A stretch of DNA of 64,000 nucleotides, taken from an uncultured bacterium (GTDB lineage Bacteria; Muiribacteriota; Ozemobacteria; Ozemobacterales; Ozemobacteraceae). The stretch's first letter is position 1, and every line of letters begins with the position of its first letter. The notes under the pieces were generated by a model. That model was not told where the DNA came from and searched no databases. It was given only the letters and a program-made list of their open reading frames with translations. This document shows, in pieces, positions 25,022-47,545 of the stretch. Where the stretch lies: positions 827,556 through 891,555 of the forward strand of contig CALEDQ010000008.1 of the NCBI GenBank assembly GCA_937949615.1, given 5' to 3'. Position numbers and translations under genes: made by a program.

Positions 25022-25028
25022 CTTTAAA

Positions 25029-27311: not shown

Positions 27312-27440
27312 TTTTCCCTCCAGAACTCGTACCTGATCTTAAAAAGTAACCCAGTAACACAGCTTAGTCAACTTTTACCGAATCTTTTCAAATTATAAAT
27401 AAATATTTCTTTATCTTTTATAAGAATTTTATTCTCAACC

Positions 27441-27687: not shown

Positions 27688-28446
27688 TCATTTTTTACGT
27701 TTTTCAATCACCAGGTTATCAACCCGGCCAAGGCGCTGGGGTTTGGGCGAATAGTCAACAATAGATTCAATATATTCACGTGGGAACAACCTGGTTTGCC
27801 CCGGAACCAAAGTCGGCGCAATCGGTGGCGCAAAATCGATTCTTGCCTTGAAATAGTTGTCACCAGGCCTTACAACTGCTGAACCCAGGGCCTTTTTCGG
27901 CAAATCGGTTTCAAAATCGATACCCAGCGGATCTTTCAACTGTGCCGGCCGCGAAAAAGTCAGCTCGATATAATCACTGATATCAACCAGATTGTTCAGA
28001 TTAACATCGACATACTCAGCCCTGGTAACAAAAAAGTTCTGTGGCAGGTAATAAACGGCGATATCATCACTCTCTGAAGCGACATTAGTCGTCTGAGGTC
28101 TTCCATCAGGGCCGCAGGAAAAAACTACACCCTGCTTTACGTCATGCAGGTAATATACTCCCCAGGGGTCACGCGGTGGTTCCTTTTCAAGATATGTTCC
28201 GATAAAGGTTCCGAGAGCCTGCGGCGAAAAAACCTCTGTCTCAAACTGTCTTGATTCCTTGATGTTATAGAGACGCACCGCCTTAACCAGCTCATCGATA
28301 TCGGCGCGGGCGCGGGTAATTCGGGTGCTGGCAATATGGCGACGGTATTCCTCAAGTGCGAAAATCAGCAGGGCAGAAATGATCAGCAGGGTTACCAGCA
28401 ACTCTATCAGAGCGAAACCCTTGGCAAACCTGCGGTTCATTGGCAC
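27688..28446 (-). CDS. Extended GspG-like pseudopilin, 252 aa
   Basis: MPMNRRFAKGFALIELLVTLLIISALLIFALEEYRRH, then PRDPWG and CGPDGRPQ. The linker is YYLPQNFFVTRAEYVDVNLNNLVDISDYIELTFSRPA. The C-terminal tip is variable. Confidence 0.8.
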   Translation of the reverse strand: MPMNRRFAKGFALIELLVTLLIISALLIFALEEYRRHIASTRITRARADIDELVKAVRLYNIKESRQFETEVFSPQALGTFIGTYLEKEPPRDPWGVYYLHDVKQGVVFSCGPDGRPQTTNVASESDDIAVYYLPQNFFVTRAEYVDVNLNNLVDISDYIELTFSRPAQLKDPLGIDFETDLPKKALGSAVVRPGDNYFKARIDFAPPIAPTLVPGQTRLFPREYIESIVDYSPKPQRLGRVDNLVIEKRKK

Positions 28447-28582: not shown

Positions 28583-30466
28583 TCAGTCAAGACCAACGGT
28601 TACAGAATCCTGCGATGGAACTTCTTCGTCGAGATAATCGACGTTGACCAGTCTCGGAGTGACCAGCATGATCATTTCAGAATTGTTGGTCTTGTTGTTA
28701 TTATGAGTCAAAAGTGTCTTCAGCAGAGGAACTTTATTGAGAAGCGACGGCGAGTTTTTCTGCTCAGAGCCCTGATGATTGATAAGACCGCCAAGCACTA
28801 CCGTTTCGCCGTTCTTGATGCGGACATAGGTCTGGGTATTTCTTTCTGAGCGATGGATCTGACCGTCTTCGTTGATATTGAGAACTGAGTCAACGGTGGT
28901 GTTGAGCTCCATGCTGATTTCGTTGTCACGAGTGATCTCGGGAGTAACTTCGAGTCTGATACCAACTTGAACGTCGCGGTATTCTTTATACACCTGGGGA
29001 GTATATCCCAGGTAACTGTTACTGGCGTTTTCATATCTGAAATACGGCACCGGAATCACTTCGCCGATATTGATCGAGGCTTTTTTACCATGCACAGCCC
29101 TGATCTTCGGGCTGGCAAGCACCTTCGCCTTGCTTTCCTGTTCAAGGAAATCGAGAGTGGCAGGCAGAGCGTAATTGCTGGGCAGACGACCGATATCGCC
29201 GACGTTGATCTTGTAGCCATCGAGCTTGATACCAAGCTGACGCAGGCTGGTGCGGTTGATTTCGACCAGTTTAACTTCGATAACCGCCTGTTTAACTTTC
29301 TCATCGACGCTTTCGATGATTTTTTCAATCAGGTTGAGGTTTTCGACCGTGTCATATACAGAGAGAGTATTGATTCTTTCGTTCAGCGAGAAGTTACCGG
29401 TGTCGATCTTTTCAGCGAGCGACTTGCTGCTGCTGATCATTTTAACGACTTCTTCAGGCTTGGCATTGATCAGTTTGAACGTGCGATACTGCTTCTTGCC
29501 AAATTCACTGGCGCTGTCCTTGGCCAGAATGACGAAGGTATTGTCGTTGTGAGGCTTCTTCACCAGTCCGTTGGTTTCGATCAGCAGATCGAGAAGCTCA
29601 TCGAGATTGAGGTTTTCGACATAAAAATTAACCTGTTTGTCTTCAACGCTTTCATGAATGATGAGGTTGATGTTCATCATTTTCGACAGAGTCTGCAGCG
29701 CGTCCTTAAGACTCAGATCGCGGAAAAGGAGCTCACGTGCCATTCTGCTGCTGTCAGTGCCGAGCGAAATAACCGTCAGATCGCGCCCCTTGAGGGTATA
29801 CTGAAAGTTTCTCTGCAGAAGCAGGTTTTTGAGGATTTCGCGCAAAGTCACATCCTGTGCATTAACGCTGAATTTCCCCTTAACGCCTGAATCGGCAAAA
29901 ATTCTCAGGTTGAATTTGACCGCCAGGGCGTTAAGAATAGTCATAAGATCTTCCTGATCGAAGCTCAAACTGACTCTCGCATCGAGCACGCTTGCTGAAC
30001 TTCCTGAAAAAGCGGCCATTTCAGCGGCGTTTCCGGCAGCAACCTTTGCAAGCGGTGAAGTTTCTAGAACCAGGTTTCGGTCGACCCTCCTTGGACTGAC
30101 CTTAAGTGGTTCATTAAAGACGATAATCGCCCTGACAACGTCGGGGCGTGTGCTTACCTGACTGATACGCATAAATTTCACCAGCGAATGTGGAGCGGGG
30201 ATAATAGTGCTGGCAGCGGCGAATTCCCAGTCATAAAAATCGGCGCGGACAACTTCCGGAGCTTCCATGGTTACGTTGAATTCCTTTACTTCATGTGCAG
30301 GAAACAGCACCATGCCATTGGCCCCATATCCGGCAATTTTCAGCTCGGTCAGCTTTTCAGCTGCTCCTGCCGGCATACTTATAATAACCGCCAGCAGAAA
30401 AACCAGAGCCAGCCGCACATTACAGCACGTGTGCCGCAGGTCTCTGCAGTTTTTTAGAAACTTCAT
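28583..30466 (-). CDS. Secretin (PilQ/GspD family) with N-terminal AMIN/STN-like domains
   Basis: Start set at the ATG with an AAGGAG Shine-Dalgarno (MKFLKNCRDL..., signal peptide). The central region has N0/N1-like domains. The C-terminal secretin domain includes ETVVLGGLINHQ...KVPLLKTLL...MIMLVTPRLV. Confidence 0.85.
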   Translation of the reverse strand: MKFLKNCRDLRHTCCNVRLALVFLLAVIISMPAGAAEKLTELKIAGYGANGMVLFPAHEVKEFNVTMEAPEVVRADFYDWEFAAASTIIPAPHSLVKFMRISQVSTRPDVVRAIIVFNEPLKVSPRRVDRNLVLETSPLAKVAAGNAAEMAAFSGSSASVLDARVSLSFDQEDLMTILNALAVKFNLRIFADSGVKGKFSVNAQDVTLREILKNLLLQRNFQYTLKGRDLTVISLGTDSSRMARELLFRDLSLKDALQTLSKMMNINLIIHESVEDKQVNFYVENLNLDELLDLLIETNGLVKKPHNDNTFVILAKDSASEFGKKQYRTFKLINAKPEEVVKMISSSKSLAEKIDTGNFSLNERINTLSVYDTVENLNLIEKIIESVDEKVKQAVIEVKLVEINRTSLRQLGIKLDGYKINVGDIGRLPSNYALPATLDFLEQESKAKVLASPKIRAVHGKKASINIGEVIPVPYFRYENASNSYLGYTPQVYKEYRDVQVGIRLEVTPEITRDNEISMELNTTVDSVLNINEDGQIHRSERNTQTYVRIKNGETVVLGGLINHQGSEQKNSPSLLNKVPLLKTLLTHNNNKTNNSEMIMLVTPRLVNVDYLDEEVPSQDSVTVGLD

Positions 30467-30567
30467 AAGCCGCTCCTTAATCAAATGATCAATTGCAAAA
30501 AAATTAATATCCCCGTTACATCATTCGACATCTGCAAAACAAAACTTTATAGCAAATTAAAAATTTG

Positions 30568-30616: not shown

Positions 30617-31777
30617 TTACATGGCCGGCTGAGTTGCGCCTGTTGAACCGCCCGAAACGACACGGGCCATACGAAAAATCGGCAGATACATCGCCAGTAC
30701 GATAACACCGACAATAGCACCAATAACAACAATGAAAGCCGGCTCAACCAGTGCCGTGATCTGATCGATCAAGAAATTGATTTCGTCTTCGTAAAATTCA
30801 GCAACCTTCTCCAACATTTCATCGAGATTACCAGATTCTTCACCGACCTCGATCATCTGAGTCGACAGCTCAGGCATGATCTCGACCTTGGCCAGAGCCC
30901 TCGATATCGGAATACCACCCTCAACTTCTTTAACAACGTCGTCGAGAGATTCCTGGATAATCATATTTTCAACGGCTTCATTACTGATCTTCATCGCAGA
31001 AATAATATTGATGCCCGACTCGAAAAGCGTCGCCAGGTTTCTGGCATAAAGAGCAATGATGTATTTCTGCAACAGACCTCCGAAAACAGGCAACTTCAGC
31101 TTGACCCAGTCGAAAAAGTGACGCCCGGAACGGGTCTGATCGATCTGAAAAAGAATGATAAAAAAAGCCAGGCCGGCAGCAAAAAGCAGCAGAAGATTGT
31201 TTCCGATAAAACCTGAAAAATTGATCACCTGCTGGGTCAGCCAGGGCAGTTCTTGATTGAACTGGGTAAACAGATTGGCAAACTGCGGAATGACGAACAG
31301 CATCAGGAACATGACGACCAGAGCTGCCACCGCAGAAATGATCAACGGATAGGTCATCGCCCCGATAACGCGGCGACGAATAGATATCTGCCGTTCCATA
31401 AGCTTGGTCAGGCGGTCGAGGACCATGACCAGTCGACCAGACTCTTCGCCAACCTTTATCAGATTCGAATAGAGCATGCCGAAAATATCATCGTGCTTTT
31501 TAAAACACATATGCAGAGGCATGCCGCCTTCTACTTCGGTCTTGGAATCCCAAATGATTTTTCTGAAGCGCCAGGTCTTCATCTGACGCGAAAGGGTGCC
31601 CAGTGACCGCAAAACCGAAATACCGGCACGGGAAAGGGTAGTGAAATATTTAGTGAACAACAGGCGCTCACTCAGCCCGATATTACCGTAAAACGGGTTC
31701 AGATATGACAGAACCGGCCGGTTCTCTTCTCCTGGACCCTCTTGCCTGACATCTTCATTAGTGTTTAAATCTACCAT
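30617..31777 (-). CDS. gspF: Type II secretion / type IV pilus platform protein GspF/PilC family
   Basis: 386 aa with the typical duplicated GspF cytoplasmic domains (LLFTKYFTTLSRAGISVLRSLGTLS ... LYARNLATLFESGINIISAMKI) and three TM segments. Confidence 0.85.
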   Translation of the reverse strand: MVDLNTNEDVRQEGPGEENRPVLSYLNPFYGNIGLSERLLFTKYFTTLSRAGISVLRSLGTLSRQMKTWRFRKIIWDSKTEVEGGMPLHMCFKKHDDIFGMLYSNLIKVGEESGRLVMVLDRLTKLMERQISIRRRVIGAMTYPLIISAVAALVVMFLMLFVIPQFANLFTQFNQELPWLTQQVINFSGFIGNNLLLLFAAGLAFFIILFQIDQTRSGRHFFDWVKLKLPVFGGLLQKYIIALYARNLATLFESGINIISAMKISNEAVENMIIQESLDDVVKEVEGGIPISRALAKVEIMPELSTQMIEVGEESGNLDEMLEKVAEFYEDEINFLIDQITALVEPAFIVVIGAIVGVIVLAMYLPIFRMARVVSGGSTGATQPAM

Positions 31778-31810: not shown

Positions 31811-32233
31811 TTACCACGGCATCTCAGTACCATTTAATTTTATTCTGACATCGCGAATCTGTTTTCCGGCAGGAACAAGTTCCTGATCTGCCCAGAGATA
31901 AACCCGTTCATAAAAGCTAACCGTATCAAGACTTGAATTGTATTCAAGACGCAGCTTTGCATCTCCGGCAAGAGGTGTGATGAGAACCGATTCGACAGAT
32001 TGCTGCAGATACGGCCCCTCAAGCAATTTCAGACTGGTCGGGTATGCCATGTTATCTTTAAAATATCGGGAAATTGCATCGCGAACAATCTTCAGATTGG
32101 TTCTCGCAGTGTTTTCCCGGGCTTCCGGCAGAATGTCGGCATAATAGTTATAGCCGACCCCGGCGAGGACGGCTATTATTGCAACCACGATCAGCATTTC
32201 CATGAGGGTGAAGCCCCCACGCTGTCTATTCAT
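31811..32233 (-). CDS. gspG: Type II secretion major pseudopilin GspG (canonical size, 140 aa)
   Basis: MNRQRGGFTLMEMLIVVAIIAVLAGVGYNYYADILPEARENTARTNLKIVRDAISRY. The prepilin leader has G at -1 and E at +5. Its start overlaps the stop of the upstream Wza-like gene by 8 nt. Confidence 0.85.
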   Translation of the reverse strand: MNRQRGGFTLMEMLIVVAIIAVLAGVGYNYYADILPEARENTARTNLKIVRDAISRYFKDNMAYPTSLKLLEGPYLQQSVESVLITPLAGDAKLRLEYNSSLDTVSFYERVYLWADQELVPAGKQIRDVRIKLNGTEMPW

Positions 32234-33086
32234 CTCTAACCATCATCACTGTCTGTTCGGCCGGGCCCTTGAAGTCAACTACCTGACGGTGCTGACGATA
32301 GCCCTTGCGCTTCAGAGTAATTTCTCCAAATTCTTTTTTGATCAGGCTGATCTTGAAAGACCCCTGTCGGTTGGTTGAAACCTTCGCATCGTCGAGCAGA
32401 ACTTCAACATTCGGAAGCGGCTGGCGGGTAAAGGCATCTACAACAGTGATTGTAACAGAGTCTGCGAGTTTGATTGGCTTCAGGTAGATTTTCGACGGGT
32501 TCCCGGCCTTGAGCATCTCTTCTAACTGACCAGCAGCAGTTGAGAAACCATCAGCAATGATGACCACATAACCGGAACTCTCGTCAAGCAGAATCTGACC
32601 AAGACGGTTCGACTGATAGATCTTGTTACCGAGCATCATGGCGACATCTGCAATACCGTTTCTGGAACCAGCATCGACGATTTCAACAAGAACCTGTCGG
32701 TCTGCAGCCGGAGCTGAAGCGGCGTTGTCGGCACCTGCCGGAGAAACCGGTGCAGTGTCACTCTTGGCGACTGCTTTTGCCGAACCTTTGCCTTTAAGAG
32801 TTACCTGAACCAGAGGGTCTTTTAGATAGCCATCTTCAAGCATCTGCGAGATCAGACGGGCTGCGTCGGTAGTTTTCATACCAGTGACACCAACAGAACC
32901 GATCAAGGGCATAATGATGCTTCCGTCTCTGCCTACCTGTCTCTCTACCGACAGTTCTGGTTCACCTTTGACCCAGATACTGATGGTATCACCGGCCCCA
33001 AGCAAAGCGGGCGCGGCCGCATTAACCAGGCCAGACGCGCTTACCAGGCCGATGAAAATAAAGATTAACCACTTAATTTTGTTCAT
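32226..33086 (-). CDS. Periplasmic polysaccharide export protein (Wza/OPX-like Poly_export domain) with a C-terminal carboxypeptidase-regulatory-like beta domain
   Basis: A signal peptide precedes a Poly_export signature GDTISIWVKGEPELSVERQVGRDGSIIMPLIGSVGVTGMKTTDAARLISQMLEDGYLKDPLVQV. An Ala-rich linker follows. The C-terminal VEVLLDDAKVSTNRQGSFKISL...GYRQHRQVV resembles a CarboxypepD_reg-like domain. There is no C-terminal amphipathic helix. Confidence 0.7.
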   Translation of the reverse strand: MNKIKWLIFIFIGLVSASGLVNAAAPALLGAGDTISIWVKGEPELSVERQVGRDGSIIMPLIGSVGVTGMKTTDAARLISQMLEDGYLKDPLVQVTLKGKGSAKAVAKSDTAPVSPAGADNAASAPAADRQVLVEIVDAGSRNGIADVAMMLGNKIYQSNRLGQILLDESSGYVVIIADGFSTAAGQLEEMLKAGNPSKIYLKPIKLADSVTITVVDAFTRQPLPNVEVLLDDAKVSTNRQGSFKISLIKKEFGEITLKRKGYRQHRQVVDFKGPAEQTVMMVRDE

Positions 33087-33330: not shown

Positions 33331-34785
33331 TCAGTGCTGTTTGCGGGCTGATGAGCTCGGAATATTCAATTCGATGCGATACTTGGCAACTGTGCGGCGG
33401 GCAAGAAAAATACCGTCTTTTTTCAGCAAATCTACGATATGACTGTCAGAAAGAGGTTTTTTGGGGTTCTCTGCCTTTACCAGGTCGTCAATGCGTTTCT
33501 TGACAGCCATCGTTGACACGTCTTCACCGCTCTGAGTCCGAGCCGCGCCTGAAAAGAAAAACTTCAGTTCGAAAAGACCGCGCGGCGTCTGCACATATTT
33601 GCCGCTGGTGGCGCGGCTGACCGTCGACTCATGCACGCCGGCCATGCCGGCGACATCCTGAAGGGTCAGGGGCTTGAGATGCAGAATACCAAAGTCGAGA
33701 AAGTCGCGCTGTACTTCACAGATGGCACGGGTAACGCTGAGAATTGTCTCTTTGCGTTTATCGACATATTTAAGAAAAGACCTGGCGGCTTCGAGTTTGT
33801 TGCGAATGAACTCGTAGGTCTCTTTCTCAGTTTTATCGCGGTGTTTCATCGCATCTTTGTAAAGGTTGTTGATACGCAGCCGCGGCAGATCACGTTCATT
33901 CATGGTGACAACATACTCATCGTCGACTTTTTCAACAAAAACTTCGGGCGAAACATAGATTTCGTCGCCAGTTGAAGGAAAACTTGCGCCAGGCTTCGGG
34001 TTAAAGCCTTTGATGATCTCGACCGCGGCCTGCACATCTTCAAGCTCGAAACCAGTGGCCTTAATGATATTGTTGATGCGATTCTGGGCGAGATCTTCAA
34101 GATGACTGGAAATAATTGCAGTCACGGCGTCATCACCATATCCCTCTTCGTGGGCCTGAATGAGCAGACATTCACGCAAATCGAAGGCCCCTACCCCGGC
34201 CGGATCCATGGTTTGAATCGCCTTGCGAATTCTCTCAACCACGGCAGTATCAACCTTCAACAGCTCAGAAATCTGCTCGCTGGTGTGCCTGAGATAGCCA
34301 TTGCGGTCGATCAGACCGATCAGATATTCACCGATCTTCTGTTCGGTCGGATTGAGGTTGACCTCACGCAGCTGAGTAGTCAGATGTTCGCGCAGATTGC
34401 TTTTTTTCGAGACGAAATTTTCGAATGATGTTTCTTCGTCGCGATTGTAGCTGCCTGAAGAAATTTTGAACTCTGAATGTTCGTTATCTTCAATATATCT
34501 CTGCCAGTCGACACCAAAATCATCACGACCGGCTTCTTTGAATTCGCGTGACGGCGGCCCGGCTTCCGGAAGCTTCTCGCCAAGTTTTTCGAGCGGCAGT
34601 TCGTTCTGCTTGGCCGACTTCTCATCAAGTTCAACGACCGGATTGGTTTCAAGCACCTCGAGAATCTGATTTTTCAGCTCAACGCTGTTAAGCTGCAGAA
34701 TCTTGATCGCAAGCTGCATCTCCGGGGTCATTTTCAGGGTCTGGGTGAGCTTCTGAGACAACCCGAGTCTGAGTGAATTATCCAT
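33331..34785 (-). CDS. rpoN: RNA polymerase sigma-54 factor
   Basis: N-terminal region I is MDNSLRLGLSQKLTQTLKMTPEMQLAIKILQL. A C-terminal HTH and RpoN box are present (ARRTVAKYRIELNIPSSSARK). Length is 484 aa. Confidence 0.9.
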   Translation of the reverse strand: MDNSLRLGLSQKLTQTLKMTPEMQLAIKILQLNSVELKNQILEVLETNPVVELDEKSAKQNELPLEKLGEKLPEAGPPSREFKEAGRDDFGVDWQRYIEDNEHSEFKISSGSYNRDEETSFENFVSKKSNLREHLTTQLREVNLNPTEQKIGEYLIGLIDRNGYLRHTSEQISELLKVDTAVVERIRKAIQTMDPAGVGAFDLRECLLIQAHEEGYGDDAVTAIISSHLEDLAQNRINNIIKATGFELEDVQAAVEIIKGFNPKPGASFPSTGDEIYVSPEVFVEKVDDEYVVTMNERDLPRLRINNLYKDAMKHRDKTEKETYEFIRNKLEAARSFLKYVDKRKETILSVTRAICEVQRDFLDFGILHLKPLTLQDVAGMAGVHESTVSRATSGKYVQTPRGLFELKFFFSGAARTQSGEDVSTMAVKKRIDDLVKAENPKKPLSDSHIVDLLKKDGIFLARRTVAKYRIELNIPSSSARKQH

Positions 34786-34875
34786 TTTATGACAAACCTT
34801 ACTGAAACTTTGATGAGAGAAATCTATCTCAAGGCCATTATACCGTATCAGACCAATTACAACAACCGCAGAGTT

Positions 34876-37326
34876 TTAAGCGCGGGAGGGGGAATTTTTG
34901 CCGGTCTGGCGCGGGTCGAGAGGATCATTATCGGCTTCGGGTTTGAAAACGACGACAGTGACACCAAGATCCCCTTCGCCGTAGCGACCAGAGCGAAATT
35001 TCTTTTTCCAGGGACTGCTTTTGAGATAATCGGTGATCGCCTTCTGCAGAGCTCCGGTGCCCTTGCCGTGAATAATGAACACTCGACCCAGGTCTGTCTC
35101 ACTGACGATCTTGAGATAGGTTTCGACTTCGTCGACAGCCTCTTCTACCCGCATGCCGCGCACATCGATTTCGCTTTTTATCAGGGGGCGAATCGCAAAT
35201 ACATTGCCGCCAGCCTTTTCTTTTTCAGTCGAGGACTTCTGCGAACCGGCCGCCAGTTCTGAAGCATGCACAACCATCATTTTTCCGTCGAAATCGACTT
35301 CGACACGCTTGCGGCCAGCCTGCCGGATTACGGTGCCCTGGCGCAGATTGAGTTTCCAGACTACATTCATGCCAGGCTTGAGCTCGTCAATTTTCAGCGA
35401 CGGCTTATCTGAAACCGGTGCAATACGGTCTTCTACCGGCTTATTCACTTCAGCCAGGCTCTTTCTGGTTTCTGAATGCGCCTGACGTGCCTCATCAAGA
35501 GCTTTCAGCATTTCTGGCGACTCATTTTTCGTAGCAATCTGCCGCAACCGATTGATCAGAGTTTCGATGTCACGCAATCTGGCGCGCAATTCGACGGTAA
35601 ATTCTTCGGTGAGTTTGTCGCGTTTTGTTTTGCGGAATTCCTGCAGCTGCTGGGTGGTTTTTTCGATTTCCTGCTCGCGGGCGCGCAGAGTCGACAGCTT
35701 CTGAACATAAGTTCTTCGCAGAGCCTCGGCGCGGTTGCGTTCGCGTTCGATGGCTTCTATAAGCCCTTTTTCATCGCGGCGCTCACCGGCATTAGACTGC
35801 ACCAGTTCAGCAAGAACCGATTCTGGCAGCCCGAATACTCTTGCCATCGCGAGAGCGTTACTCTTGCCGGGAATACCGATCTGAAAGCGAAACGTCGGCT
35901 TGAAGGTCTCGTAATCGAATTCCATGGCGGCATTGATGAAACCCTCGGTGGTAAACGCAACATGTTTTAGAGAATCATAATGAGAAGTCACGACACAGAA
36001 GGCGCCACGCGAACTCAGTTCTTTGAGAAAGCCTGAAGCCAGCGCCCCACCCTCGACCGGGTCAGTACCGACACAGATTTCGTCGATCAGAATAAGAGAA
36101 TGTGCGCCACCGATATCGATCATCTCTTTCAGGCGTTTGAGATGCGCGGTAAAAGTCGAAAGATGATCTTCGATGCTCTGACTCTCACCAATGTCGGAAA
36201 GCACCTGATGAAAAACCGGTATTCTGGCGTCACGGGCCGCGAGAACATAGTTGCCGGTCTGCATCAATAGAGCATTGATCCCTACTGTTTTCAAAGCAAC
36301 CGTTTTACCGCCGCCGTTCGGGCCGGTAATGATTATACAGCGCTGAGCAGAATTCATCTTTATGTCGAGAGGCACGCAGTTAGGATGGATCAGGGGATGA
36401 CGAGCCTGATTCAACAACAGATCCGACTTGTCAGAGACTTCGGGACGACTGGCCTCATATCTGATCGAGAACTCGCTGCGGGCCCGCACCATATCGAGCC
36501 AGGTGAGGGTTTCAAACTGTTCGGTCATCGCCCCGAGCGACTGATAAAGCAGTGAAGTCAGGCTGTTGAAAATCTTTCGAATTTCTTCGCGTTCAGAAAG
36601 CCGCAGCTGCGCCAGACGGTTGTTGACCGGCAAAAACTGCAGGGGCTCGATAAATACCGTCTGCCCGGTAGCAGACTGATCATGCACGATACCCTGAATA
36701 CGGCTCTGAGCCGAAGCGAGAACCGGCACGACATAGCGATCGTTGCGCAGCGTAAAATAACGGTCCTGAACGTCTTCGGCATGATGCGCCAGAAATGCCG
36801 CCAGCTGTTTCTCGATGTTGCCGACTGTCTGCGTATATTCACGGCGTATCGAGGCAAGAGCCGGTGAAGCGTCATTACGCACCTGTCCCCGGTCATCGAG
36901 ACAGTCGTCAATTCTCTGAAAAAGCCCGGAAAGCAGCGGCATGCCGCGAATCCGCTCAGCAATACGCCCCTGGGTTTTAAGCGTAATGCTGGCAGCGTGG
37001 CTGTCAAAAGCCTTTCTCAGCCCGGCAGCCGTTTCGATATTGGCTTTGACTTTGAGAAAATCTTCTGAACCGAGAACGGTCGAACCGGCCTGCAGAATCT
37101 CGATAATTTCACGAATATCGCGAAGACCGCCCGGATTGATTTTTACACCGGAATGTGAATATTCGAGGTATTCGTCAATTTCGGCCAGCCAGCCACTGAT
37201 CTGATTGGCATCAGTAGAAGGGTGCAACGTCAGAATTTTTTCTTTGGCAGCACGCGAACCGGCGAACGAAGCGATGATCGCCAGTATTTTGTTGAATTCT
37301 AAATTGTCTAATGATTTCTGTTCCAC
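34876..37326 (-). CDS. mutS2: Endonuclease MutS2 (MutS domain plus C-terminal Smr domain)
   Basis: Walker A IITGPNGGGKTVALKT is present. There is a long coiled-coil, and the C-terminal Smr domain includes IDVRGMRVEEAVDEVETYL...IHGKGTGALQ. Confidence 0.9.
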   Translation of the reverse strand: MEQKSLDNLEFNKILAIIASFAGSRAAKEKILTLHPSTDANQISGWLAEIDEYLEYSHSGVKINPGGLRDIREIIEILQAGSTVLGSEDFLKVKANIETAAGLRKAFDSHAASITLKTQGRIAERIRGMPLLSGLFQRIDDCLDDRGQVRNDASPALASIRREYTQTVGNIEKQLAAFLAHHAEDVQDRYFTLRNDRYVVPVLASAQSRIQGIVHDQSATGQTVFIEPLQFLPVNNRLAQLRLSEREEIRKIFNSLTSLLYQSLGAMTEQFETLTWLDMVRARSEFSIRYEASRPEVSDKSDLLLNQARHPLIHPNCVPLDIKMNSAQRCIIITGPNGGGKTVALKTVGINALLMQTGNYVLAARDARIPVFHQVLSDIGESQSIEDHLSTFTAHLKRLKEMIDIGGAHSLILIDEICVGTDPVEGGALASGFLKELSSRGAFCVVTSHYDSLKHVAFTTEGFINAAMEFDYETFKPTFRFQIGIPGKSNALAMARVFGLPESVLAELVQSNAGERRDEKGLIEAIERERNRAEALRRTYVQKLSTLRAREQEIEKTTQQLQEFRKTKRDKLTEEFTVELRARLRDIETLINRLRQIATKNESPEMLKALDEARQAHSETRKSLAEVNKPVEDRIAPVSDKPSLKIDELKPGMNVVWKLNLRQGTVIRQAGRKRVEVDFDGKMMVVHASELAAGSQKSSTEKEKAGGNVFAIRPLIKSEIDVRGMRVEEAVDEVETYLKIVSETDLGRVFIIHGKGTGALQKAITDYLKSSPWKKKFRSGRYGEGDLGVTVVVFKPEADNDPLDPRQTGKNSPSRA

Positions 37327-40986: not shown

Positions 40987-41340
40987 TCAGGCCGCCAGTA
41001 TCGACATGGCTTCGGTTTCGCTGCCAACCTGCTGTGCCATGAAAAATAGACCTGACATTTCGAGGACGACGGAATGATGTTTATCGAGGCCCCAGACAGC
41101 TATCTGCCCGGCAAAATCGTCGACGACCATACCGCTGATATCGAGAAGAGCGGCAACACCAGGGCTGCTTATCAGCTCGATCGTTGAAAAGTCGAGAGCA
41201 AACCGGCTGAGGCCGGTATCCAGGCATTTCTGCACATGCGCTTTCAAAGTGGTTCCACCGGTATCTTCAAGATAGCCCTTCAGCCGCATAATTTCGATCT
41301 GGCCACGGGTTTCTGAATTAAACGAGAATTGTTGATACAT
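40987..41340 (-). CDS. STAS-domain protein (anti-sigma-factor antagonist family)
   Basis: Start set at MYQQFSF with a GGGAGG Shine-Dalgarno 5 nt upstream. The product is ~117 aa. A STAS-like core is present (LDFSTIELISSPGVAALLDI). Confidence 0.65.
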   Translation of the reverse strand: MYQQFSFNSETRGQIEIMRLKGYLEDTGGTTLKAHVQKCLDTGLSRFALDFSTIELISSPGVAALLDISGMVVDDFAGQIAVWGLDKHHSVVLEMSGLFFMAQQVGSETEAMSILAA

Positions 41341-41923
41341 CCGAACCTCCCATAGGTTATAGAGTCTCAATACTATACTGAACAAGCTCTACAAAGCAAC
41401 CCCATAAAGAAACGCGGACATGGCAAACCGCGGGAATCTCCAGATAAAATCATGCAGGATGCCCTGCTGCGCAGGAATGACGGGCAGGCGGGCTAAAATA
41501 AAAAATGTGCCGTTTTAAGCGACACATTGAAAGGGAGTTAGGGATTTGGTTGTCCATTCACTTCAGGTCAACTCAAGTTAAAGTTGAACCTTACATGAAC
41601 TTCAAAATTCATATCGACGTATAAAGTTAAAGTATTTAGCTTTTTTTTAACTTTTTTATTTTTTCTTGCTTTTAATGATTTCAAAAGTCATCGAACATGA
41701 CAAAAATCTTTCCTAGCCAATCTTATAAGATGTTTCATAAATGGAACACCATCGGCAACAGGCCAAAACGTGGCAACAAAGTTATAGAACCACGATTTTT
41801 TCAGGGATCTTAGGCAAAAGTTATTTTTTAAAATTTACGGGCTCAATGTCGGCAGTTTTTGTGACGATAGGGAAATTACCGGTTAGTAAACATAATAAAA
41901 GAAAGATTTCGGAGGTAAACTCA

Positions 41924-42145
41924 ATGAAGAAAGAAAGCCTCATGACAATTCCAGAGTTGATGGACTTTCTGCAGGTCAAGCGCAATACTATCTACACTCT
42001 GAGAAATCTGGGTTTGCCAACAGTCAAGATCGGCAGATCAGTGCGTTTTCGTGCTGACAGCGTCATCAGATGGCTGAGTGACCTTGAAAAGACCAGCAAT
42101 TCACCGGTAAGCGGCCTGATTCACGACAACGCTCATCTGCTTTAA
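41924..42145 (+). CDS. Small helix-turn-helix DNA-binding protein (AlpA/excisionase-like, MerR-type HTH_17)
   Basis: A GGAGG Shine-Dalgarno sits 7 nt upstream of the ATG at 41924. The product is MKKESLMTIPELMDFLQVKRNTIYTLRNLGLPTVKIGRSVRFRADSVIRWL. The longer ORF from 41741 lacks a Shine-Dalgarno and is AT-rich. Confidence 0.6.
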   Translation: MKKESLMTIPELMDFLQVKRNTIYTLRNLGLPTVKIGRSVRFRADSVIRWLSDLEKTSNSPVSGLIHDNAHLL

Positions 42146-42375: not shown

Positions 42376-44427
42376 TTACAAAGTTTTATAAAGACGGGTG
42401 TAATTCCAGTGACTGCCCATAACCTTCTTATAATAGTCGCGGGTTTCGGGCAACGGAACACGGTCGAGACGTTCGAGCACCGGAAGACCGGCAAATGGTC
42501 CGGCTTCGACCTTTCTCTGAATATTACCCTGACCGCCGTTATAGGACGCAGAAGCAAGATAGAGATCACCGTTGAAAAGATCGGCAAGATAGCGCAGATA
42601 CCAGGAACCGTAGCGAATGTTAAGGTCGGCATCCCAGAGTCTGTCCTTTTTAAAACCTTTCTCACCGAGTTTGCCGGCAATCCATTTACCGGTATTGGGC
42701 AGAATCTGCATCAGACTCATGGCATTGCTGCGCGACAGGGTGTCAGGCTTGAAATGACTTTCTTCGCGCATGATTGAGAGAATCCAGAACGGATCAATCC
42801 CGAATTTACGGGCATTCTCGCGCACCTGTTTTTCATAAACCACTGGATAAAGTGCTTGCCAGCCCCATTCTGGCATTTCGACCAGTGACCGGTCAGCATC
42901 GAGAATCTGGCGTGCCAGGCGTTCTCCGTAGGCTACAATCTGGTTATAATCACCGTTTTCTCTGGCAATATCGATTATCGCCTTATACAAGGCAAGGTTT
43001 GCCGGATTTTTGTCAGTCAGACGTATTGCTTCAGCTCTTGCCTGACCTGCAAACGGACTTTTCCAGAGTTTTTTCAGGGCGGCAACTCTTGTCTGCAGAG
43101 CAGGCGACAGTTTGCCGGTTTTGCCGTTCTGAAGAATCAGATTTTCTTTCATCGACTGAGGCGAAACCCAGCCAACAAAGAATGAATTCGGGTATTTTTT
43201 CTTCAGAAGCTTGATGATAGCCTGACCTTCCTGCGTCTGAGGTCCAACCGCCATGGCAGAATAACCAAGCGCGTCGTCAGCGCGGTGATGCCCGGGGAAA
43301 CTGCGGCTGAGCAGCATAAAGAAAGGCACCGCGCGTGATTTCTGGCCGGCGTCGTAGCATTCGAGGCCCATTTCATAAATATGAACCGGCAGAAGCGGCC
43401 CGGCCATCGGCTGCGTTGCCAGTCTGCCCATGATTTCGAGAGCTTCGGCATCGCGGCCGATTCTGAAAGCCGAACGCATCAGGCGATATTCGGCGGCAAT
43501 AAGATTGGCAGGGAATCTTTTGAACTTGAGAACTTCTCGATAATCGGCGGCGGCAGAAGAGTGGTTTTCGGCAAAATGGTGCGCATCACCACGCAGCTGA
43601 TAAGCCAGCGTCATGGTTTCTGCACTCGCCTTCCGGCCGGAGATAACGGCATTGAAAATTTCCATTGCCTGCGGCAACTTATTCTGCTGTCTCAGATTGT
43701 CGGCTCTGAAAATCTCCGCAGCCTGCTGACCAAACCTGCCGAACAGAGCGGCGTAATTATGAGGTTTCTTGAAAAACTCGCCAATCAAGCCTTCATAAGA
43801 GGCAGAGAGAAGAATTTCAACCCATTCTTCATCGATAAACTGGTATTGTTCCGGATTCTGCAGAATTTTTTTCAGCAGGTCATGACATGCCGGTGCCTGG
43901 CGATAAAAAGTACTGTCAGAACGAAACTGCCGAACTGCATTCAAAGCAAACCGGCTCTTGCGGGCCCCGCTAAGAAACGGCAGTTCAGAAAGCTTAACCA
44001 TAGCAGTACCGCGCTGCCATGGAGTTGCCAGCTCAGATGCTTTTTTTTCAAGCCTGACTGCTGAATTTTCATCGGCAGCAGTTTCAAGCTGCAGCATGAA
44101 GCGAGGCATCTGGCTCTGAAAAGCCGATTCGCCATCAGGAAACTGGCTGACGATACGCTCATATAATGCCAGGGCTTCTGCCTTCCGACCAAGATTTTTC
44201 AGAGCTTCGGCTTCGAGAAACAGTCTGAGGTCATTGAGCTCTGCCGAGGCTTTCAAACCCTGCAGACGAGCGAGCAGATCAGCATGTTTCCCGCCCTCAA
44301 AAAGTCTGGCGACCTCGGCAAGATTTTTGTCAAAAGACTGACAGAAAGCTGATGCCGAAATAAATAAGAGAAGGATCAAAAACAGCAAAGTTTGCGCAAA
44401 CTTTAACTTGAACTTTAAGATTGTCAT
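42376..44427 (-). CDS. Soluble lytic murein transglycosylase (Slt70-like; superhelical N-domain plus SLT catalytic domain)
   Basis: Start set at MTILKFKL (signal peptide) with an AAGGAG Shine-Dalgarno. The C-terminal SLT motif is EESHFKPDTLSRSNAMSLMQILPNTG. The N-terminal region is TPR/superhelical-like. Confidence 0.8.
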   Translation of the reverse strand: MTILKFKLKFAQTLLFLILLLFISASAFCQSFDKNLAEVARLFEGGKHADLLARLQGLKASAELNDLRLFLEAEALKNLGRKAEALALYERIVSQFPDGESAFQSQMPRFMLQLETAADENSAVRLEKKASELATPWQRGTAMVKLSELPFLSGARKSRFALNAVRQFRSDSTFYRQAPACHDLLKKILQNPEQYQFIDEEWVEILLSASYEGLIGEFFKKPHNYAALFGRFGQQAAEIFRADNLRQQNKLPQAMEIFNAVISGRKASAETMTLAYQLRGDAHHFAENHSSAAADYREVLKFKRFPANLIAAEYRLMRSAFRIGRDAEALEIMGRLATQPMAGPLLPVHIYEMGLECYDAGQKSRAVPFFMLLSRSFPGHHRADDALGYSAMAVGPQTQEGQAIIKLLKKKYPNSFFVGWVSPQSMKENLILQNGKTGKLSPALQTRVAALKKLWKSPFAGQARAEAIRLTDKNPANLALYKAIIDIARENGDYNQIVAYGERLARQILDADRSLVEMPEWGWQALYPVVYEKQVRENARKFGIDPFWILSIMREESHFKPDTLSRSNAMSLMQILPNTGKWIAGKLGEKGFKKDRLWDADLNIRYGSWYLRYLADLFNGDLYLASASYNGGQGNIQRKVEAGPFAGLPVLERLDRVPLPETRDYYKKVMGSHWNYTRLYKTL

Positions 44428-44544
44428 CTGATTCTCCTTGTGTGTTCTTTGTACCAAAAAGTTTGTGCGGTTTTCAAGTGGCGTAAACAGGACATTTCGC
44501 CCGGTCAGCAACCTGCCGGAGTCCGCATGCGGTACTGATTGTCG

Positions 44545-44573
44545 TTGCAATTCCAAAAAATTTCCTGTATAAA
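44545..44573 (+). promoter_or_regulatory. Sigma-70 promoter candidate TTGCAA-N17-TATAAA for the EF-G-like gene
   Basis: The -35 is at 44545-44550 and the -10 at 44568-44573, with a 17-nt spacer. It lies about 55 nt upstream of the ATG at 44630. Confidence 0.5.
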
Positions 44574-44629
44574 TATGAGATTAAATTTTGTTAACCACTG
44601 TTTTAAACAGTATTTTTTAGGAGAAATGC

Positions 44630-46714
44630 ATGAAACTGTATACTACCGAAAAGATTCGTAACATTGGTCTCGTGGGCCATGGCGGCACCGGCAAAACTTC
44701 TCTGGCAGAAGCAATGCTGTTTCACACCGGCGCCAACACCCGCATCGGCAAAGTCGATGATGATACCTCGGTTATGAACTATGACCCCGAAGAAACCAAG
44801 CGCAAAGCCACCGTCGGCACTTCGCTTGCCGCCCTTGAATACAAGGATCACAAAATCAACCTGCTCGACGCACCCGGTTTTGATGATTTTCTCGGTGAAG
44901 TATACAAGATTTCCGGCGCCATCGACATGGCGATCGTGACCGTTAACGCCCAGTCAGGCGTTGAAGTCGGCACCGAAAAGAACTGGGCAATTCTTGAAGA
45001 AGCAAAGACCCCGAGAATCGTTTTCCTCAGCAAACTCGACAAAGAAAACATCAACCTCGACAAGACCATGACCCAGCTGAAGTCTCTCGACAGCAAGATC
45101 ACCCCGGTCATCGTTCCCTGGGGCACTTTCGACAAACTCAAAGGCGTTATCGACCTCATCGACATGAAAGCCTACGCATACAACGACGACAAGGGCAAAG
45201 CCATCGAAGTAAAAGACATTCCCGCCGATATGATGGATTATGCCAAGGGTCTGCGTGAACCTATGGTTGAATCGATCGTCGAATGCGACGAAGCTCTGAT
45301 GGAAAAATTCTTCGACGGTCAGGAAATCAGCCCGGCCGAACTGCGCGCCGCTCTGCGCAAAGGTCTGGCCAAGAACGAAATCAAGCCCCTGGTCAGCGGC
45401 ATGGCTCTCAAGAGCATCGGCACCGAAAACTTGCTCGACTTCATAGTCACCTGCACTCCGTCACCGGCAGAATGCCGCGTTCTCCCGGCTGTTAAAGCCG
45501 GCACTACCGAAGAAGTCGTCTTCACCAACGACCCGAACGGCCCGGTCTGCGGTTTCATCTTCAAGAAAATCAACGAACAGGCAGGCGATATGATCTTCAT
45601 GCGCGCCATCAGCGGCACCTTCCTGCCTGGCACTGAATATTACAACCCGACCACTGAAAACTTCGAAAGATTCAGCGCCTTTGCCACTCTGCGCGGCAAA
45701 ACCAAGATCGACATCGAAAAAGTCGTCGCCGGTGACATCGTCGCCCTGGTTAAACCGAAAAACTCGACCCACGGCCACACTCTGTGTGAAAAAGCCAACC
45801 AGGTACTGGTAAAAGTGCCGGCTCTGCCGCAGGCCAAGCTGACCTATGCAGTTAACCCCCGCACCAAACAGGATCAGGAAAAGATGGGCGTTGGCCTCAA
45901 CACCCTCTGCGCCGACGACGGCGTTCTCACCTATAAATTCGACCCCGAACTCGGTCAGGGTCTGCTCTCTGGCCTCGGTGACACTCATATCGACGTAACC
46001 GTCAGCCGCCTGAAATCACGCTGGGGCGTTGACGTAGACATCTCCAAACCGAAAATTCCTTACAGAGAAACAATCAAAGGTAAATCAAGAGTCCAGGGCA
46101 AGCACAAGAAACAGTCCGGTGGTCGCGGTCAGTATGGTGACGTCTGGATTCGCTTCGAACCGCTTCCCGGTGGCGATTTTGAATTCGTCGACGAAATCGT
46201 CGGCGGTGCCGTTCCGGGCAACTTTGTTCCGGCCGTAGAAAAAGGTCTGCAGGAAGCCCGCCGCCGTGGCGCCCTCGCCGGATTCCACACCATCGGTTTC
46301 AAAGCCACCATCGACTTCGGCTCATATCATGACGTCGACTCTTCAGAAATGGCATTCAAACTTGCCGCAACCATAGCCTTCAAAAAAGGTATCGTTGAAG
46401 CCAAGCCGGTTCTGCTTGAGCCAATCTATGAAGTAGCCGTCACCGTTCCTGATGAATTCATGGGCTCGATCATCGGTGACCTGAACTCAAGACGCGGCCG
46501 CATTCTTGGCATGGAACCCCTTGGCGGTCAGCAGGTCGTCAAAGCCAGAGTTCCGTTGGCAGAAATGTATAAATATGCCACCGACCTCAAGTCGATGACC
46601 CAGTCGCGCGCCGACTTCACCATGACTTTCAGCTCATACGAAGAAGTTCCGGCCAACGTTACTGAACAGATCATCAAAGAATATAAGACCGCCGACGAAG
46701 AAACAGAAGCCTGA
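44630..46714 (+). CDS. Elongation factor G paralog with a degenerate GTPase active site
   Basis: All five EF-G domains are recognisable, and the domain IV/V motifs LNSRRGRILGME...VPLAEMYKYATDLKSMTQSRADFTM are conserved. G1 is GHGGTGKTS. G3 is DAPGFDDF in place of DTPGHVDF, so Phe replaces the catalytic His. G4 is SKLD in place of NKxD. An AGGAG Shine-Dalgarno is present. Confidence 0.85.
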   Translation: MKLYTTEKIRNIGLVGHGGTGKTSLAEAMLFHTGANTRIGKVDDDTSVMNYDPEETKRKATVGTSLAALEYKDHKINLLDAPGFDDFLGEVYKISGAIDMAIVTVNAQSGVEVGTEKNWAILEEAKTPRIVFLSKLDKENINLDKTMTQLKSLDSKITPVIVPWGTFDKLKGVIDLIDMKAYAYNDDKGKAIEVKDIPADMMDYAKGLREPMVESIVECDEALMEKFFDGQEISPAELRAALRKGLAKNEIKPLVSGMALKSIGTENLLDFIVTCTPSPAECRVLPAVKAGTTEEVVFTNDPNGPVCGFIFKKINEQAGDMIFMRAISGTFLPGTEYYNPTTENFERFSAFATLRGKTKIDIEKVVAGDIVALVKPKNSTHGHTLCEKANQVLVKVPALPQAKLTYAVNPRTKQDQEKMGVGLNTLCADDGVLTYKFDPELGQGLLSGLGDTHIDVTVSRLKSRWGVDVDISKPKIPYRETIKGKSRVQGKHKKQSGGRGQYGDVWIRFEPLPGGDFEFVDEIVGGAVPGNFVPAVEKGLQEARRRGALAGFHTIGFKATIDFGSYHDVDSSEMAFKLAATIAFKKGIVEAKPVLLEPIYEVAVTVPDEFMGSIIGDLNSRRGRILGMEPLGGQQVVKARVPLAEMYKYATDLKSMTQSRADFTMTFSSYEEVPANVTEQIIKEYKTADEETEA

Positions 46715-46720
46715 CGATAA

Positions 46721-46757
46721 CAACGGGTGCGGGCATTTCTGGCCGCACCCGTTTTAT
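46721..46757 (+). terminator. Terminator-like hairpin after the EF-G-like gene
   Basis: A 10-bp stem acgggtgcgg (46723-46732) pairs with ccgcacccgt (46743-46752), followed by TTTTA. The U-tract is short. Confidence 0.45.
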
Positions 46758-46780: not shown

Positions 46781-47545
46781 ATGCAGGATCAAAGACAGGA
46801 AAATCAGAACCGCAGTTGCCGACTGGCATTACAGTTTCATATCGACAACGACGAGATTAACGCTCTTTGCACTAGATTCAGAACAGCTGTTACTGAAGGG
46901 CGTGACAAGGGGTATTCGTGCGGCATGATTGCGGTAACGCTTACCCGCATTATCAAAGAAGCGATCGACCTCAAATTCGAAAAGAAGCCAGTCAGCGCCG
47001 AACATCTTGTGCTGGCCCACGACAGCCATGAACCGGAATTCAACAAATTAAAAGCAAGCCTGGTGCGCGGCATGTTTTTAACCTGTATCGAACACCCGCA
47101 GGGTTTTCCCGGACTGTTCGACATTCTTGCCGGCATCGCTGCAGCCGGTATGGGTTACGGGTCATTTTTACTCCCGGAAACCAATCAAAGAATCAAACTT
47201 GAAGAAATTCACAGCTTGTGCCCTGACCAGACCTGGGTCAGAGAAACGACTATCGAAGTCATGCTGCACCTTCTGGTTCCCGAAAAAATAGCGGGCTTTG
47301 CCAGTGCCAGAATAGGTCTCTTCAGCATGCTGGTGGGCAGTTCTCTTCTGCCATTTTACGCAGTAGCGGCCAGTCATACCACTAATATGCCACCTGATCG
47401 GGAAAAAGTTATCGCCATGGTCTGCGGTCGATTCAGCCCAGATTCTGAGAGACTAAAAAAATTTCTTGGGCAAAATCTTTTCCTGGTTTTCTTCGAAGAA
47501 TTATTCACCCATGAGTCGACAGTTTTTTCAATTTTCAACCTCTGA
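46781..47545 (+). CDS. Hypothetical protein (254 aa)
   Basis: ORF with an AGGAA Shine-Dalgarno, on the same strand as the EF-G-like gene and just downstream of it. I recognise no family motifs. Confidence 0.55.
   Translation: MQDQRQENQNRSCRLALQFHIDNDEINALCTRFRTAVTEGRDKGYSCGMIAVTLTRIIKEAIDLKFEKKPVSAEHLVLAHDSHEPEFNKLKASLVRGMFLTCIEHPQGFPGLFDILAGIAAAGMGYGSFLLPETNQRIKLEEIHSLCPDQTWVRETTIEVMLHLLVPEKIAGFASARIGLFSMLVGSSLLPFYAVAASHTTNMPPDREKVIAMVCGRFSPDSERLKKFLGQNLFLVFFEELFTHESTVFSIFNL

Follow-up and report, generated by a model that had tools for sequence, protein, structure and literature searches.

A putative EFG II-type elongation factor G with Phe in place of the catalytic His in Riflebacteria

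The protein encoded at positions 44630..46714 (+) of the window, the 64-kb stretch of DNA analysed here, is labelled 'elongation factor G' in the source annotations and carries altered residues in its GTPase centre, which raises the question of whether it is a translocase of the usual kind or a factor of another sort. The host is an uncultured Candidatus Riflebacteria bacterium (Rifleibacterium / Ozemobacteraceae). The gene is an unbroken open reading frame with an ATG start, coding for 694 aa plus stop, which we assign as a putative EFG II / EF-G2-type elongation factor G CDS from Pfam, NCBIfam, phmmer and an AF2 model. The Pfam domains GTP_EFTU (residues 7-278), EF-G_D2, EFG_III, EFG_IV and EFG_C each exceed their gathering score and, with the AF2 model, give the five-domain EF-G architecture including the G' insertion. 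Residues 4-683 align to T. thermophilus EF-G (phmmer against PDB, E=1.5e-167). TM values between the AF2 model (pLDDT 91.9) and EF-G structures are 0.81-0.92; E. coli EF-G on the ribosome gives 0.92 and B. theta EF-G2, also ribosome-bound, gives 0.88. The fold search cannot separate EFG I from EFG II: its score is governed by overall conformation, which places canonical EF-Gs in their ribosome-bound form at the top.

The GTPase centre departs from that of Thermus EF-G at G1, G3 and G4 (phmmer alignment against PDB). The P-loop, G16-H-G-G-T-G-K-T23 (44675..44698, +), has the EFG II-type Gly16, and Gly replaces both the canonical Ile of the hydrophobic gate and the monovalent cation-binding Asp, AHIDAGKTT becoming GHGGTGKTS. 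In G3 / switch II, D80-A-P-G-F84-D-D-F87 (44867..44890, +), DTPGHVDF becomes DAPGFDDF, and Phe84 (codon 44879-44881) stands where the catalytic His would be. G4, S134-K-L-D137 (45029..45040, +), is an NKxD motif with Asn replaced by Ser and with Lys and Asp kept (NKMD to SKLD), and in switch I RGITI reads 'RKATV', with the Thr kept as T61. In the alignment blocks 'inlldapgFddf' lies over 'iniidtpgHvdf', 'flSKLD' over 'faNKMD' and 'GHGGTGKTS' over 'AHIDAGKTT', with zero gaps from P-loop to G4; because no gap separates the two, no indel has displaced the His, a possibility that the earlier note had raised against its own reading and that is ruled out. Twenty-one independent contigs, drawn from several samples, encode an identical protein, and the substitutions are genuine, not sequencing noise. 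The five Pfam domains, the near full-length alignment and the gap-free G-domain alignment, in which F84 sits over the His, thus bear out the description in the earlier note of a full-length EF-G homologue with typical domains, degenerate G1, G3 and G4 motifs, and Phe in place of the catalytic His.

Profile and residue comparisons indicate that the protein is a member of the EFG II / EF-G2 subfamily ('EFGII' in Atkinson 2015, PMC4342817), a long-described kind and no new type of system. Of the NCBIfam models the best match is to NF009381 (PRK12740.1-5, 'elongation factor G' subfamily), whose cutoff of 583 bits is exceeded with 842.8 bits over profile positions 1-690 of 692. Two scores point the other way: the EF-G equivalog TIGR00484 is also passed, by only 2 bits (661.5 vs 659.4), and at full length the protein scores higher against canonical Thermus EF-G (562 bits) than against Thermus EF-G-2 (466 bits). 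With the G domain alone, T. thermophilus EF-G-2 (1WDT) is the best match in the PDB (E=1e-34) and B. theta EF-G2 (7UVP/8DMF) the second, both outranking all canonical EF-Gs.

The diagnostic residues of EFG II, at type I and type II positions, are listed in Table 1 of Margus 2011 (PMC3150367). We found the type I residues G16, L25, G356 and K375, in columns where the five canonical representatives (including Dictyoglomus and Gluconobacter) have A, T (3/5, with L and V in the other two), A and G; among the remaining near representatives, Gly occupies the 16 column in 115/145 and Leu the 25 column in 118/145. Two of the three domain II positions Thr291, Gly333 and Lys/Arg352 (1WDT numbering) match, as G356 and K375, and K313 differs both from the Thr of EFG II and from the Ile of EFG I. 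The type II positions (D216, V250, L264, K471, K472, E513 and G603; Margus 2011, PMC3150367) were mapped by hand from ungapped and gapped blocks of the phmmer alignment onto Tth EF-G numbering, and six of seven states match (D220, L268, K493, K494, E537 and G627), with L254 instead of Val. Departures from the EFG II markers are therefore two, K313 (not Thr) and L254 (not Val), and they count against the assignment. In EFG II the RGITI consensus of G2 is relaxed, and its Mg-coordinating position still carries Ser (76%) or Thr (Margus 2011, PMC3150367); RKATV with T61 conforms to this pattern.

In a purely distance-based (NJ) tree of 151 sequences, built with no bootstrap, the five canonical representatives form a monophyletic group, and the window protein branches within sequences that lack the His, with Phe in 5/6, 6/8 and 14/29 members of the surrounding subclades. 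At the 'His' position the 150 nearest 50%-identity cluster representatives have Y in 68 cases, F in 35, D in 10 and H in 8, and the best 120 protein homologues listed are all EFG II. Tyr or Phe at this position is the rule in EFG II, a family-typical feature not peculiar to this gene.

With the EFG II subfamily the window protein shares the five domains plus G', Gly16/Leu25 in the P-loop, the change of the P-loop Asp to Gly, the relaxed G2 keeping Ser/Thr, Gly356 and Lys375 in domain II, Lys-Lys ahead of domain IV loop 1, and a divergent G domain combined with well conserved domains IV and V. It differs in that its branch evolves slowly and has kept a high score against canonical EF-G, in its Lys (not Thr) at marker 291 (316) and Leu (not Val) at 250 (258), and in the S/TKLD form of G4 found in its clade, whereas most members keep NKxD. 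T. thermophilus EF-G-2 (1WDT, 2DY1) follows the same GHxGxGKTxL, DAPG[Y/F]xDF and [T/S]KLD patterns (as GHAGSGKTTL, DAPGYGDF and TKLD) and also lacks the catalytic His, but it has Tyr instead of Phe, is 665 aa long with deletions, and accounts for the 466 bits given above. The B. thetaiotaomicron EF-G2 (BT2167; 7UVP, 8DMF) has likewise lost the His (Ser; DCPGSDDF) and altered G4 (NQLD); however, it has 718 aa and its regulation by Cur/BT4338 is Bacteroides-specific, and the window protein lies outside the Bacteroides clade, with 565.8 against a cutoff of 1000 for NF058620 (EFG2_Bacteroid). M. smegmatis EF-G2 (9K0Z, 9K10) shows His>Tyr98, NKMD>TKLD and a remodelled P-loop, but is far more divergent, with no G2 or G5 residue kept and a shorter C-terminal helix, and its model NF009377 (PRK12740.1-1, EF-G-like protein EF-G2) is not passed (522.9 vs 890). 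Canonical EF-G (EFG I; fusA; TIGR00484) has the same fold, domain order and domain IV tip motifs, at 37-41% identity, whereas the window protein has GHGGTGKT, RKATV, DAPGF and SKLD in place of AHIDAGKT, RGITI, DTPGH and NKMD, together with the EFG II diagnostic states, and its gene stands outside the str-operon context (rpsL-rpsG-fusA-tuf) that is typical, though not universal, of the canonical gene.

We compared the window protein with 88 Riflebacteria orthologues at 62-99% identity (n=89). Position 84 is F in 78, V in 8, I in 2 and T in 1, and never His; position 134 is S in 75 and T in 14; and the T61 column, at the Mg-coordinating position of G2, is T in 86 and S in 3. G21, K22, D80, P82, G83, K135 and D137 are invariant or nearly so in the 89 sequences (D80, P82 and G83 strictly), as are the domain IV loops KQSGGRGQYG and SYHDVDSS. 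The gene is under purifying selection in Riflebacteria, and a pseudogene is all but excluded, because the reading frame is intact and the GTP-binding and domain IV residues are invariant in this set.

Upstream of the gene, a putative sigma-70-type promoter (44545..44573, +) consists of TTGCAA (-35), a 17-nt spacer and TATAAA (-10), with TG directly before the -10. In an alignment of intergenic regions from four Riflebacteria lineages TTGCA and TCCTGTATAAATA are conserved as two blocks with 17 nt between them, and TTGC and TCCTGTATA..TA are invariant. A sigma-70 promoter scan upstream of 44630 reported none, the TTGCAA/TATAAA site being below its criteria. Given the conserved blocks, the promoter of its own that the earlier note had given the gene, and had called strong, is plausible as a promoter of whatever strength. 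A sigma-54 promoter was considered, with rpoN in the window and TTGCA resembling a -12 element, and rejected: by eye, GG at -24 with the right spacing is present only at locus L009 and absent in the window, L007 and L008, and the sigma-70-like TTGCA-17-TATAAA is preferred. The small leader hairpin claimed alongside the promoter, the palindrome ACTGTTTTAAACAGT (44597..44611, +), is probably non-functional: it folds with z=0.78, as well as 155/200 shuffles, is not conserved in L007-L009 in the intergenic alignment, and has no Rfam family, the sole match in the upstream region at permissive thresholds being the eukaryotic CAESAR at a chance-level E=0.6. An upstream riboswitch, leader or attenuator was rejected on the same Rfam, fold and conservation results. 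The Shine-Dalgarno AGGAGA (44619..44624, +) lies 5 nt 5' of the ATG, and GAGGAGA is invariant in the Riflebacteria intergenic alignment (A1). On the 3' side of the stop codon, an intrinsic-terminator-like hairpin (46717..46757, +) ends in U-rich UUUUAU and has a minimum free energy of -25.6 kcal/mol (z=-5.65, 0/200 shuffles folding as well). The terminator scan did not report it, in our reading since its apical region exceeds simple-loop criteria. The gene is monocistronic and has both a promoter-like block that is conserved and a strong terminator.

Judged from its residues, the protein should keep all that is needed for GTP binding and for EF-G-like docking on the ribosome with domain IV in the A site, and the SRL-activated catalytic machinery appears to be missing (His>Phe, P-loop Ile and Asp both Gly). 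The explanation that we consider likely, taken as a whole, is that this EFG II factor binds GTP but hydrolyses it poorly, and serves under energy limitation as an alternative translocase or as a factor that holds the ribosome. It would bind GTP, engage the ribosome, and then support slow translocation or hold the ribosome, ribosome-stimulated GTP hydrolysis being slight or absent, as an energy-sparing or stress-time alternative to canonical EF-G. The data show the sequence features, the family membership, the purifying selection and the anatomy of the transcription unit; from analogy we infer GTP binding without hydrolysis, this physiological role, and that a canonical fusA lies elsewhere in the same genome. 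EFG II is always accompanied by another EF-G in the genome, usually EFG I (Margus 2011, PMC3150367).

The ribosome-binding, hydrolysis-poor role suggested in the earlier note fits the precedents of M. smegmatis and B. theta EF-G2, but the suggestion had overlooked the EFG II identity, and with it that the loss of the His is family-typical. As cited in PMC10294740 and in a 2026 mycobacterial preprint, B. theta EF-G2 (Han et al. 2023, EMBO J) 'enables GTP-independent translation', which is slow; the factor is non-essential and is induced by starvation, with carbon limitation as the inducer. M. smegmatis EF-G2, which acts under stress, lacks GTPase activity that depends on the ribosome, and H88Y nearly abolishes the GTPase of EF-G1. 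For T. thermophilus EF-G-2, intrinsic and ribosome-dependent GTPase and translocation are reported despite Tyr for His, so the absence of the His does not prove the absence of hydrolysis. The analogy with EF-G2 fixes no single mechanism, because the characterised proteins differ in role: a slow translocase in Bacteroides, a ribosome trap in mycobacteria, and a near-normal factor in Thermus.

A stress-time ribosome-sequestering factor, binding post-translocation ribosomes and slowing translation like M. smegmatis EF-G2, is an unlikely alternative, although the two proteins share the subfamily, the lost His, S/TKLD and a remodelled P-loop, and the mycobacterial protein is described as a trap for post-translocated ribosomes under stress. 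In M. smegmatis EF-G2 the C-terminal helix is shortened and the loops of domain IV are displaced, whereas the C-terminus of the window protein aligns to the canonical EF-G end and its domain IV loops are canonical and invariant. Its full-length similarity to M. smegmatis EF-G2 (9K0Z, 405 bits in 2 stretches) is also below that to canonical EF-G. The sequestering role overlaps the hydrolysis-poor alternative factor that we favour, and is not exclusive of it.

It is very unlikely that the protein is the only or main translocase of the organism, doing normal EF-G work by non-canonical catalysis. The full five domains, the invariant domain IV tip, the high-confidence EF-G fold and the TIGR00484 cutoff passed by 2 bits would suit such a role, as would the lack of a second EF-G nearby: 44630..46714 is the only gene in the 64-kb window detected by tblastn with the EF-Gs of Dictyoglomus and Gluconobacter, none of the 31 window proteins scanned, which cover most of the plausible coding ORFs, gives a second GTP_EFTU/EF-G match in Pfam, and tblastn finds no other EF-G in the flanks of nine related loci. 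Against it stand the EFG II signature residues and clustering away from canonical EF-G, a would-be catalytic position that varies as F/V/I/T within the phylum, and orthologue identity down to about 62% within one phylum, which is more divergence than is usual for a sole essential EF-G. The gene context speaks against it too, with no str-operon context in any of four lineages: the gene is divergent from slt in all four, rpsG or tuf is never adjacent, and distant orthologue loci likewise lack the str operon. The neighbours are slt, a hypothetical protein, a PKD protein, trmFO, topA and dprA. The divergently transcribed slt (42376..44430, -) codes for a Slt-family lytic transglycosylase (Pfam SLT) with a TPR region, and the arrangement recurs at loci of orthologues with 78%, 73% and 70% identity; slt is a conserved neighbour for which we propose no functional partnership. 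In the literature on Riflebacteria we found nothing on EF-G. That Riflebacteria lack canonical fusA altogether, with this His-less, Phe-bearing EF-G as the only translocase of the phylum, is highly improbable; if true, routine translocation would run without His-catalysed, SRL-activated GTP hydrolysis. In a milder version, which we rank as more likely, the genome does have a canonical EF-G, and members of the Phe/Val/Ile clade would be natural, obligatorily hydrolysis-dead, 'H92A-like' EF-Gs working by GTP binding alone, which would extend the Bacteroides result rather than overturn it.

A tetracycline ribosomal-protection protein or a dedicated recycling EF-G (spdEFG2 / mtEF-G2 type) is scarcely credible: there is distant similarity to Tet(M/O/Q) and mitochondrial RRF2, but tet_protect NF012153 gives 264.8 bits against a cutoff of 775, mitochondrial EF-G2 retains the catalytic His and the conserved G motifs, and M. 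smegmatis EF-G2, of the same subfamily, cannot recycle ribosomes. A decaying pseudogene copy of fusA, which the degenerate canonical GTPase motifs might suggest, is effectively refuted by the conservation data, with the 694-codon frame intact, the identical protein on 21 contigs, the nucleotide-binding and domain IV residues invariant (n=89) and the regulatory signals conserved.

The main value of the finding lies in annotation, where the label 'elongation factor G' risks confusion with the housekeeping translocase of an uncultured phylum; such a mistake is possible because the protein is annotated in this way and passes TIGR00484 by only 2 bits. The EF-G2 family gains a phylum-wide, strongly conserved Phe/Val/Ile branch. 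As its position-84 side chains are aliphatic or aromatic and have no hydroxyl, the substitution pattern argues that this residue has no catalytic role, at least in that branch. This makes the branch a natural and clean system in which to test translocation by GTP binding alone, or the holding of ribosomes when energy is limited, which bears on the debate over the purpose of GTP hydrolysis by EF-G (PMC12775393).

The EF-G2 gene is an uninterrupted frame of 694 codons (44630-46714, + strand), with a ribosome-binding site, AGGAGA, 5 nt upstream of its ATG, and an identical protein occurs on 21 independent contigs drawn from assemblies in Logan, ENA and NCBI. The Pfam domains GTP_EFTU, EF-G_D2, EFG_III, EFG_IV and EFG_C all exceed their gathering scores. 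In a phmmer search against the PDB, residues 4-683 align to T. thermophilus EF-G (E=1.5e-167), with zero gaps from the P-loop to G4. An alignment artefact therefore cannot explain the motif substitutions, and a His shifted by an indel is ruled out: G1 is GHGGTGKTS (canonical AHIDAGKTT), G2 is RKATV with the Thr kept (RGITI), G3 is DAPGFDDF (DTPGHVDF) and G4 is SKLD (NKMD). The His-less GTPase centre described in the earlier note is thus real, and its interpretation was broadly right, although the known subfamily to which the protein belongs went unrecognised.

Several independent sequence tests agree in assigning the protein to EFG II (EF-G2), the subfamily of Margus, Remm and Tenson (2011, PMC3150367). 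Its top NCBIfam model is NF009381 (PRK12740.1-5; 842.8 bits vs a cutoff of 583), the cutoff of the canonical EF-G model TIGR00484 is exceeded by only 2 bits, and the scores fall below the cutoffs of the Bacteroides EF-G2, NF009377 EF-G2 and tetracycline-protection models. When the G domain alone was searched against the PDB, the best match was T. thermophilus EF-G-2 (1WDT, E=1e-34; motifs GHAGSGKTTL, DAPGYGDF and TKLD), followed by B. thetaiotaomicron EF-G2 (7UVP/8DMF; GSSGSGKTTL, DCPGSDDF and NQLD), both outranking every canonical EF-G. At the type I positions of Margus et al. the window protein carries G16, L25, G356 and K375, where five canonical representatives have A, T (in three; the remaining two have L and V), A and G; the deviating positions are T61, the minority Thr state, and K313, which fits neither subfamily. 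Of the seven type II positions, six match EFG II in a hand mapping of the phmmer alignment. EFGII is widespread, with a divergent G domain in which Gly replaces the monovalent-cation-binding P-loop Asp (Atkinson 2015, PMC4342817); the equivalent residue here is G19.

HMMER was run exhaustively against 1.84 billion cluster representatives to collect the 150 nearest, only 5 of which have the canonical motif set. Tyr (68) and Phe (35) are the commonest residues at the His position, ahead of D (10), H (8), L (7), N (5), S (5) and A (4), and the G4 Asn is replaced by S or T in 28. The canonical five are monophyletic in a neighbour-joining tree, where the window protein lies deep among His-less sequences and the surrounding subclade is dominated by Phe (5/6, 6/8 and 14/29). 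Together with the family placement, these counts show that His loss characterises a large and old subfamily, in which Phe is the second most common replacement. Three near EFG II-like representatives have His at G3 (P0126, DCPGHTDF; P0211, DTSGHPDF; P0238, DTPGHPNY) together with non-canonical P-loops, which suggests His retention or reversion inside EFG II. What is new here is a Phe-type EF-G2 in Riflebacteria, the subfamily itself being already known.

Among the matches listed, the closest database proteins (98-99% identity) carry the names Candidatus Rifleibacterium sp. or Candidatus Ozemobacteraceae bacterium, and orthologues down to ~62% identity are assigned to Riflebacteria or Rifleibacteriota. 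In an alignment of the window protein with 88 full-length orthologues (n=89), the nucleotide-binding residues G21, K22, D80, P82, G83, K135 and D137 are invariant, the T61 position is Thr in 86 and Ser in 3, and the two loops at the tip of domain IV, KQSGGRGQYG and SYHDVDSS, hardly vary. The catalytic-His-equivalent position is F in 78, V in 8, I in 2, T in 1 and His in none, and G4 begins with S in 75 and with T in 14. Purifying selection thus acts strongly on GTP binding and A-site insertion, and any hydrophobic side chain is tolerated at the "catalytic" position.

The gene diverges from that of an Slt-family lytic transglycosylase (42376-44430, − strand). This slt/EF-G2 pair recurs in related loci L007, L008 and L009, whose EF-G2 proteins are 78%, 73% and 70% identical, so that the pairing and an intergenic region of ~180-200 nt are kept across Riflebacteria lineages. 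Aligning the four intergenic regions revealed invariant blocks TTGC(A) and TCCTGTATA..TA, which in the window form a promoter-like TTGCAA-17 nt-TATAAA (44545-44573, + strand), and an invariant Shine-Dalgarno GAGGAGA. This conservation lends good support to a dedicated promoter; the "strong" of the earlier proposal is unproven, as the site does not qualify under the stricter criteria of a sigma-70 scan. The TTGCA block also looks like the −12 element of a sigma-54 promoter; inspection by eye showed that a −24 GG at the right spacing is not conserved in these regions. The window also encodes RpoN (sigma-54) and a MutS2/Smr protein, upstream of glmS (33331-37326, − strand). The proposed small leader hairpin did not hold up: the palindrome at 44597-44611 folds much like shuffled sequences (z=0.78), is unconserved and matches no Rfam family. 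The stop codon is followed directly by a strong hairpin ending in a U-rich run (46717-46757, −25.6 kcal/mol, z=−5.65), and the gene therefore looks monocistronic.

On the 3' side follow a 254-aa protein, a 1494-aa PKD-repeat protein, trmFO, topA and dprA, an order shared by L007 and different in L008 and L009. The 254-aa gene (46781-47545, + strand), directly after the terminator, has no Pfam match; L007 has a 251-aa gene at the same place, and a gene of this size is absent after EF-G2 in L008 and L009. Between a TPR protein and slt (40987-42145) sit a small STAS-domain, anti-sigma-factor-antagonist-like protein (40987-41385, − strand) and an HTH_17 (excisionase/MerR-like) ORF (around 41741-42145, + strand), both seen again in L001-L008; L008 has toxin-antitoxin genes (HepT/NTP_transf_2, PemK) inserted in this stretch.

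Elsewhere in the window, six tandem paralogous genes (23282-28446, − strand; 237-252 aa) each encode a protein with a prepilin methylation motif (N_methyl) at its N-terminus and a T2SS protein G-like domain. This unusually large pseudopilin array lies where the GC content of the window is lowest (0.43-0.47) and adjoins a secretin (28583-30484) and a T2SS F-type platform protein (30617-31777). Three large membrane proteins encoded in a row (15517-23271, − strand; 934, 655 and 679 aa) each have a Wzy_C/O-antigen ligase domain, with a Wzz chain-length determinant (2998-4221) and a Poly_export protein (32226-33086) upstream. The − strand also encodes, at 1156-2937 and 5365-7179, an Eco57I/N6_Mtase/TaqI_C type DNA methyltransferase and a 604-aa protein of Pfam "MutL" PF13941, a family we take to be unrelated to mismatch-repair MutL.

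Since the P-loop Gly-Lys-Thr, DxxG and G4 Lys and Asp are intact and invariant, and the switch I Thr is also intact, guanine-nucleotide binding is expected; T. thermophilus EF-G-2, of the same G1/G3/G4 type, is reported to have been crystallised with GTP (Connell 2007). Canonical EF-G uses three elements for sarcin-ricin loop-activated hydrolysis that this protein lacks: Phe84 stands in place of the catalytic His, G18 and A60 in place of the hydrophobic-gate Ile of the P-loop and of switch I, and G19 in place of the P-loop Asp. In M. smegmatis, H88Y nearly abolishes the GTPase of EF-G1, and EF-G2 (Tyr98, TKLD) has no ribosome-dependent GTPase. Domains II-V are close to canonical EF-G, and the AF2 model (pLDDT 91.9) resembles ribosome-bound EF-G (TM 0.92) and ribosome-bound B. 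theta EF-G2 (TM 0.88). The protein would thus bind GTP, dock on the ribosome as EF-G does, and either translocate slowly or hold the ribosome, consuming GTP below the normal rate. As its C-terminus and the tip of domain IV are canonical, we lean towards a slow translocase over a pure trap. A caveat is T. thermophilus EF-G-2, which lacks the His yet is reported to hydrolyse GTP and translocate. An EF-G2-type, hydrolysis-poor alternative factor is the probable identity of the window protein.

A second EF-G is absent from the window and nine related loci, and the protein-search matches listed (best only) are all EFG II. The gene is never in str-operon context in the loci of the four lineages compared, the window having no tuf or ribosomal protein genes nearby, and the catalytic-His-equivalent position varies within the phylum; context and variability favour a paralog beside another EF-G, and make it very improbable that this is the genome's only one.

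For such a hydrolysis-poor factor B. theta EF-G2 is a precedent: it is reported to be non-essential and strongly induced by carbon limitation, and it "enables GTP-independent translation". A factor with low GTP use would be useful under energy limitation.
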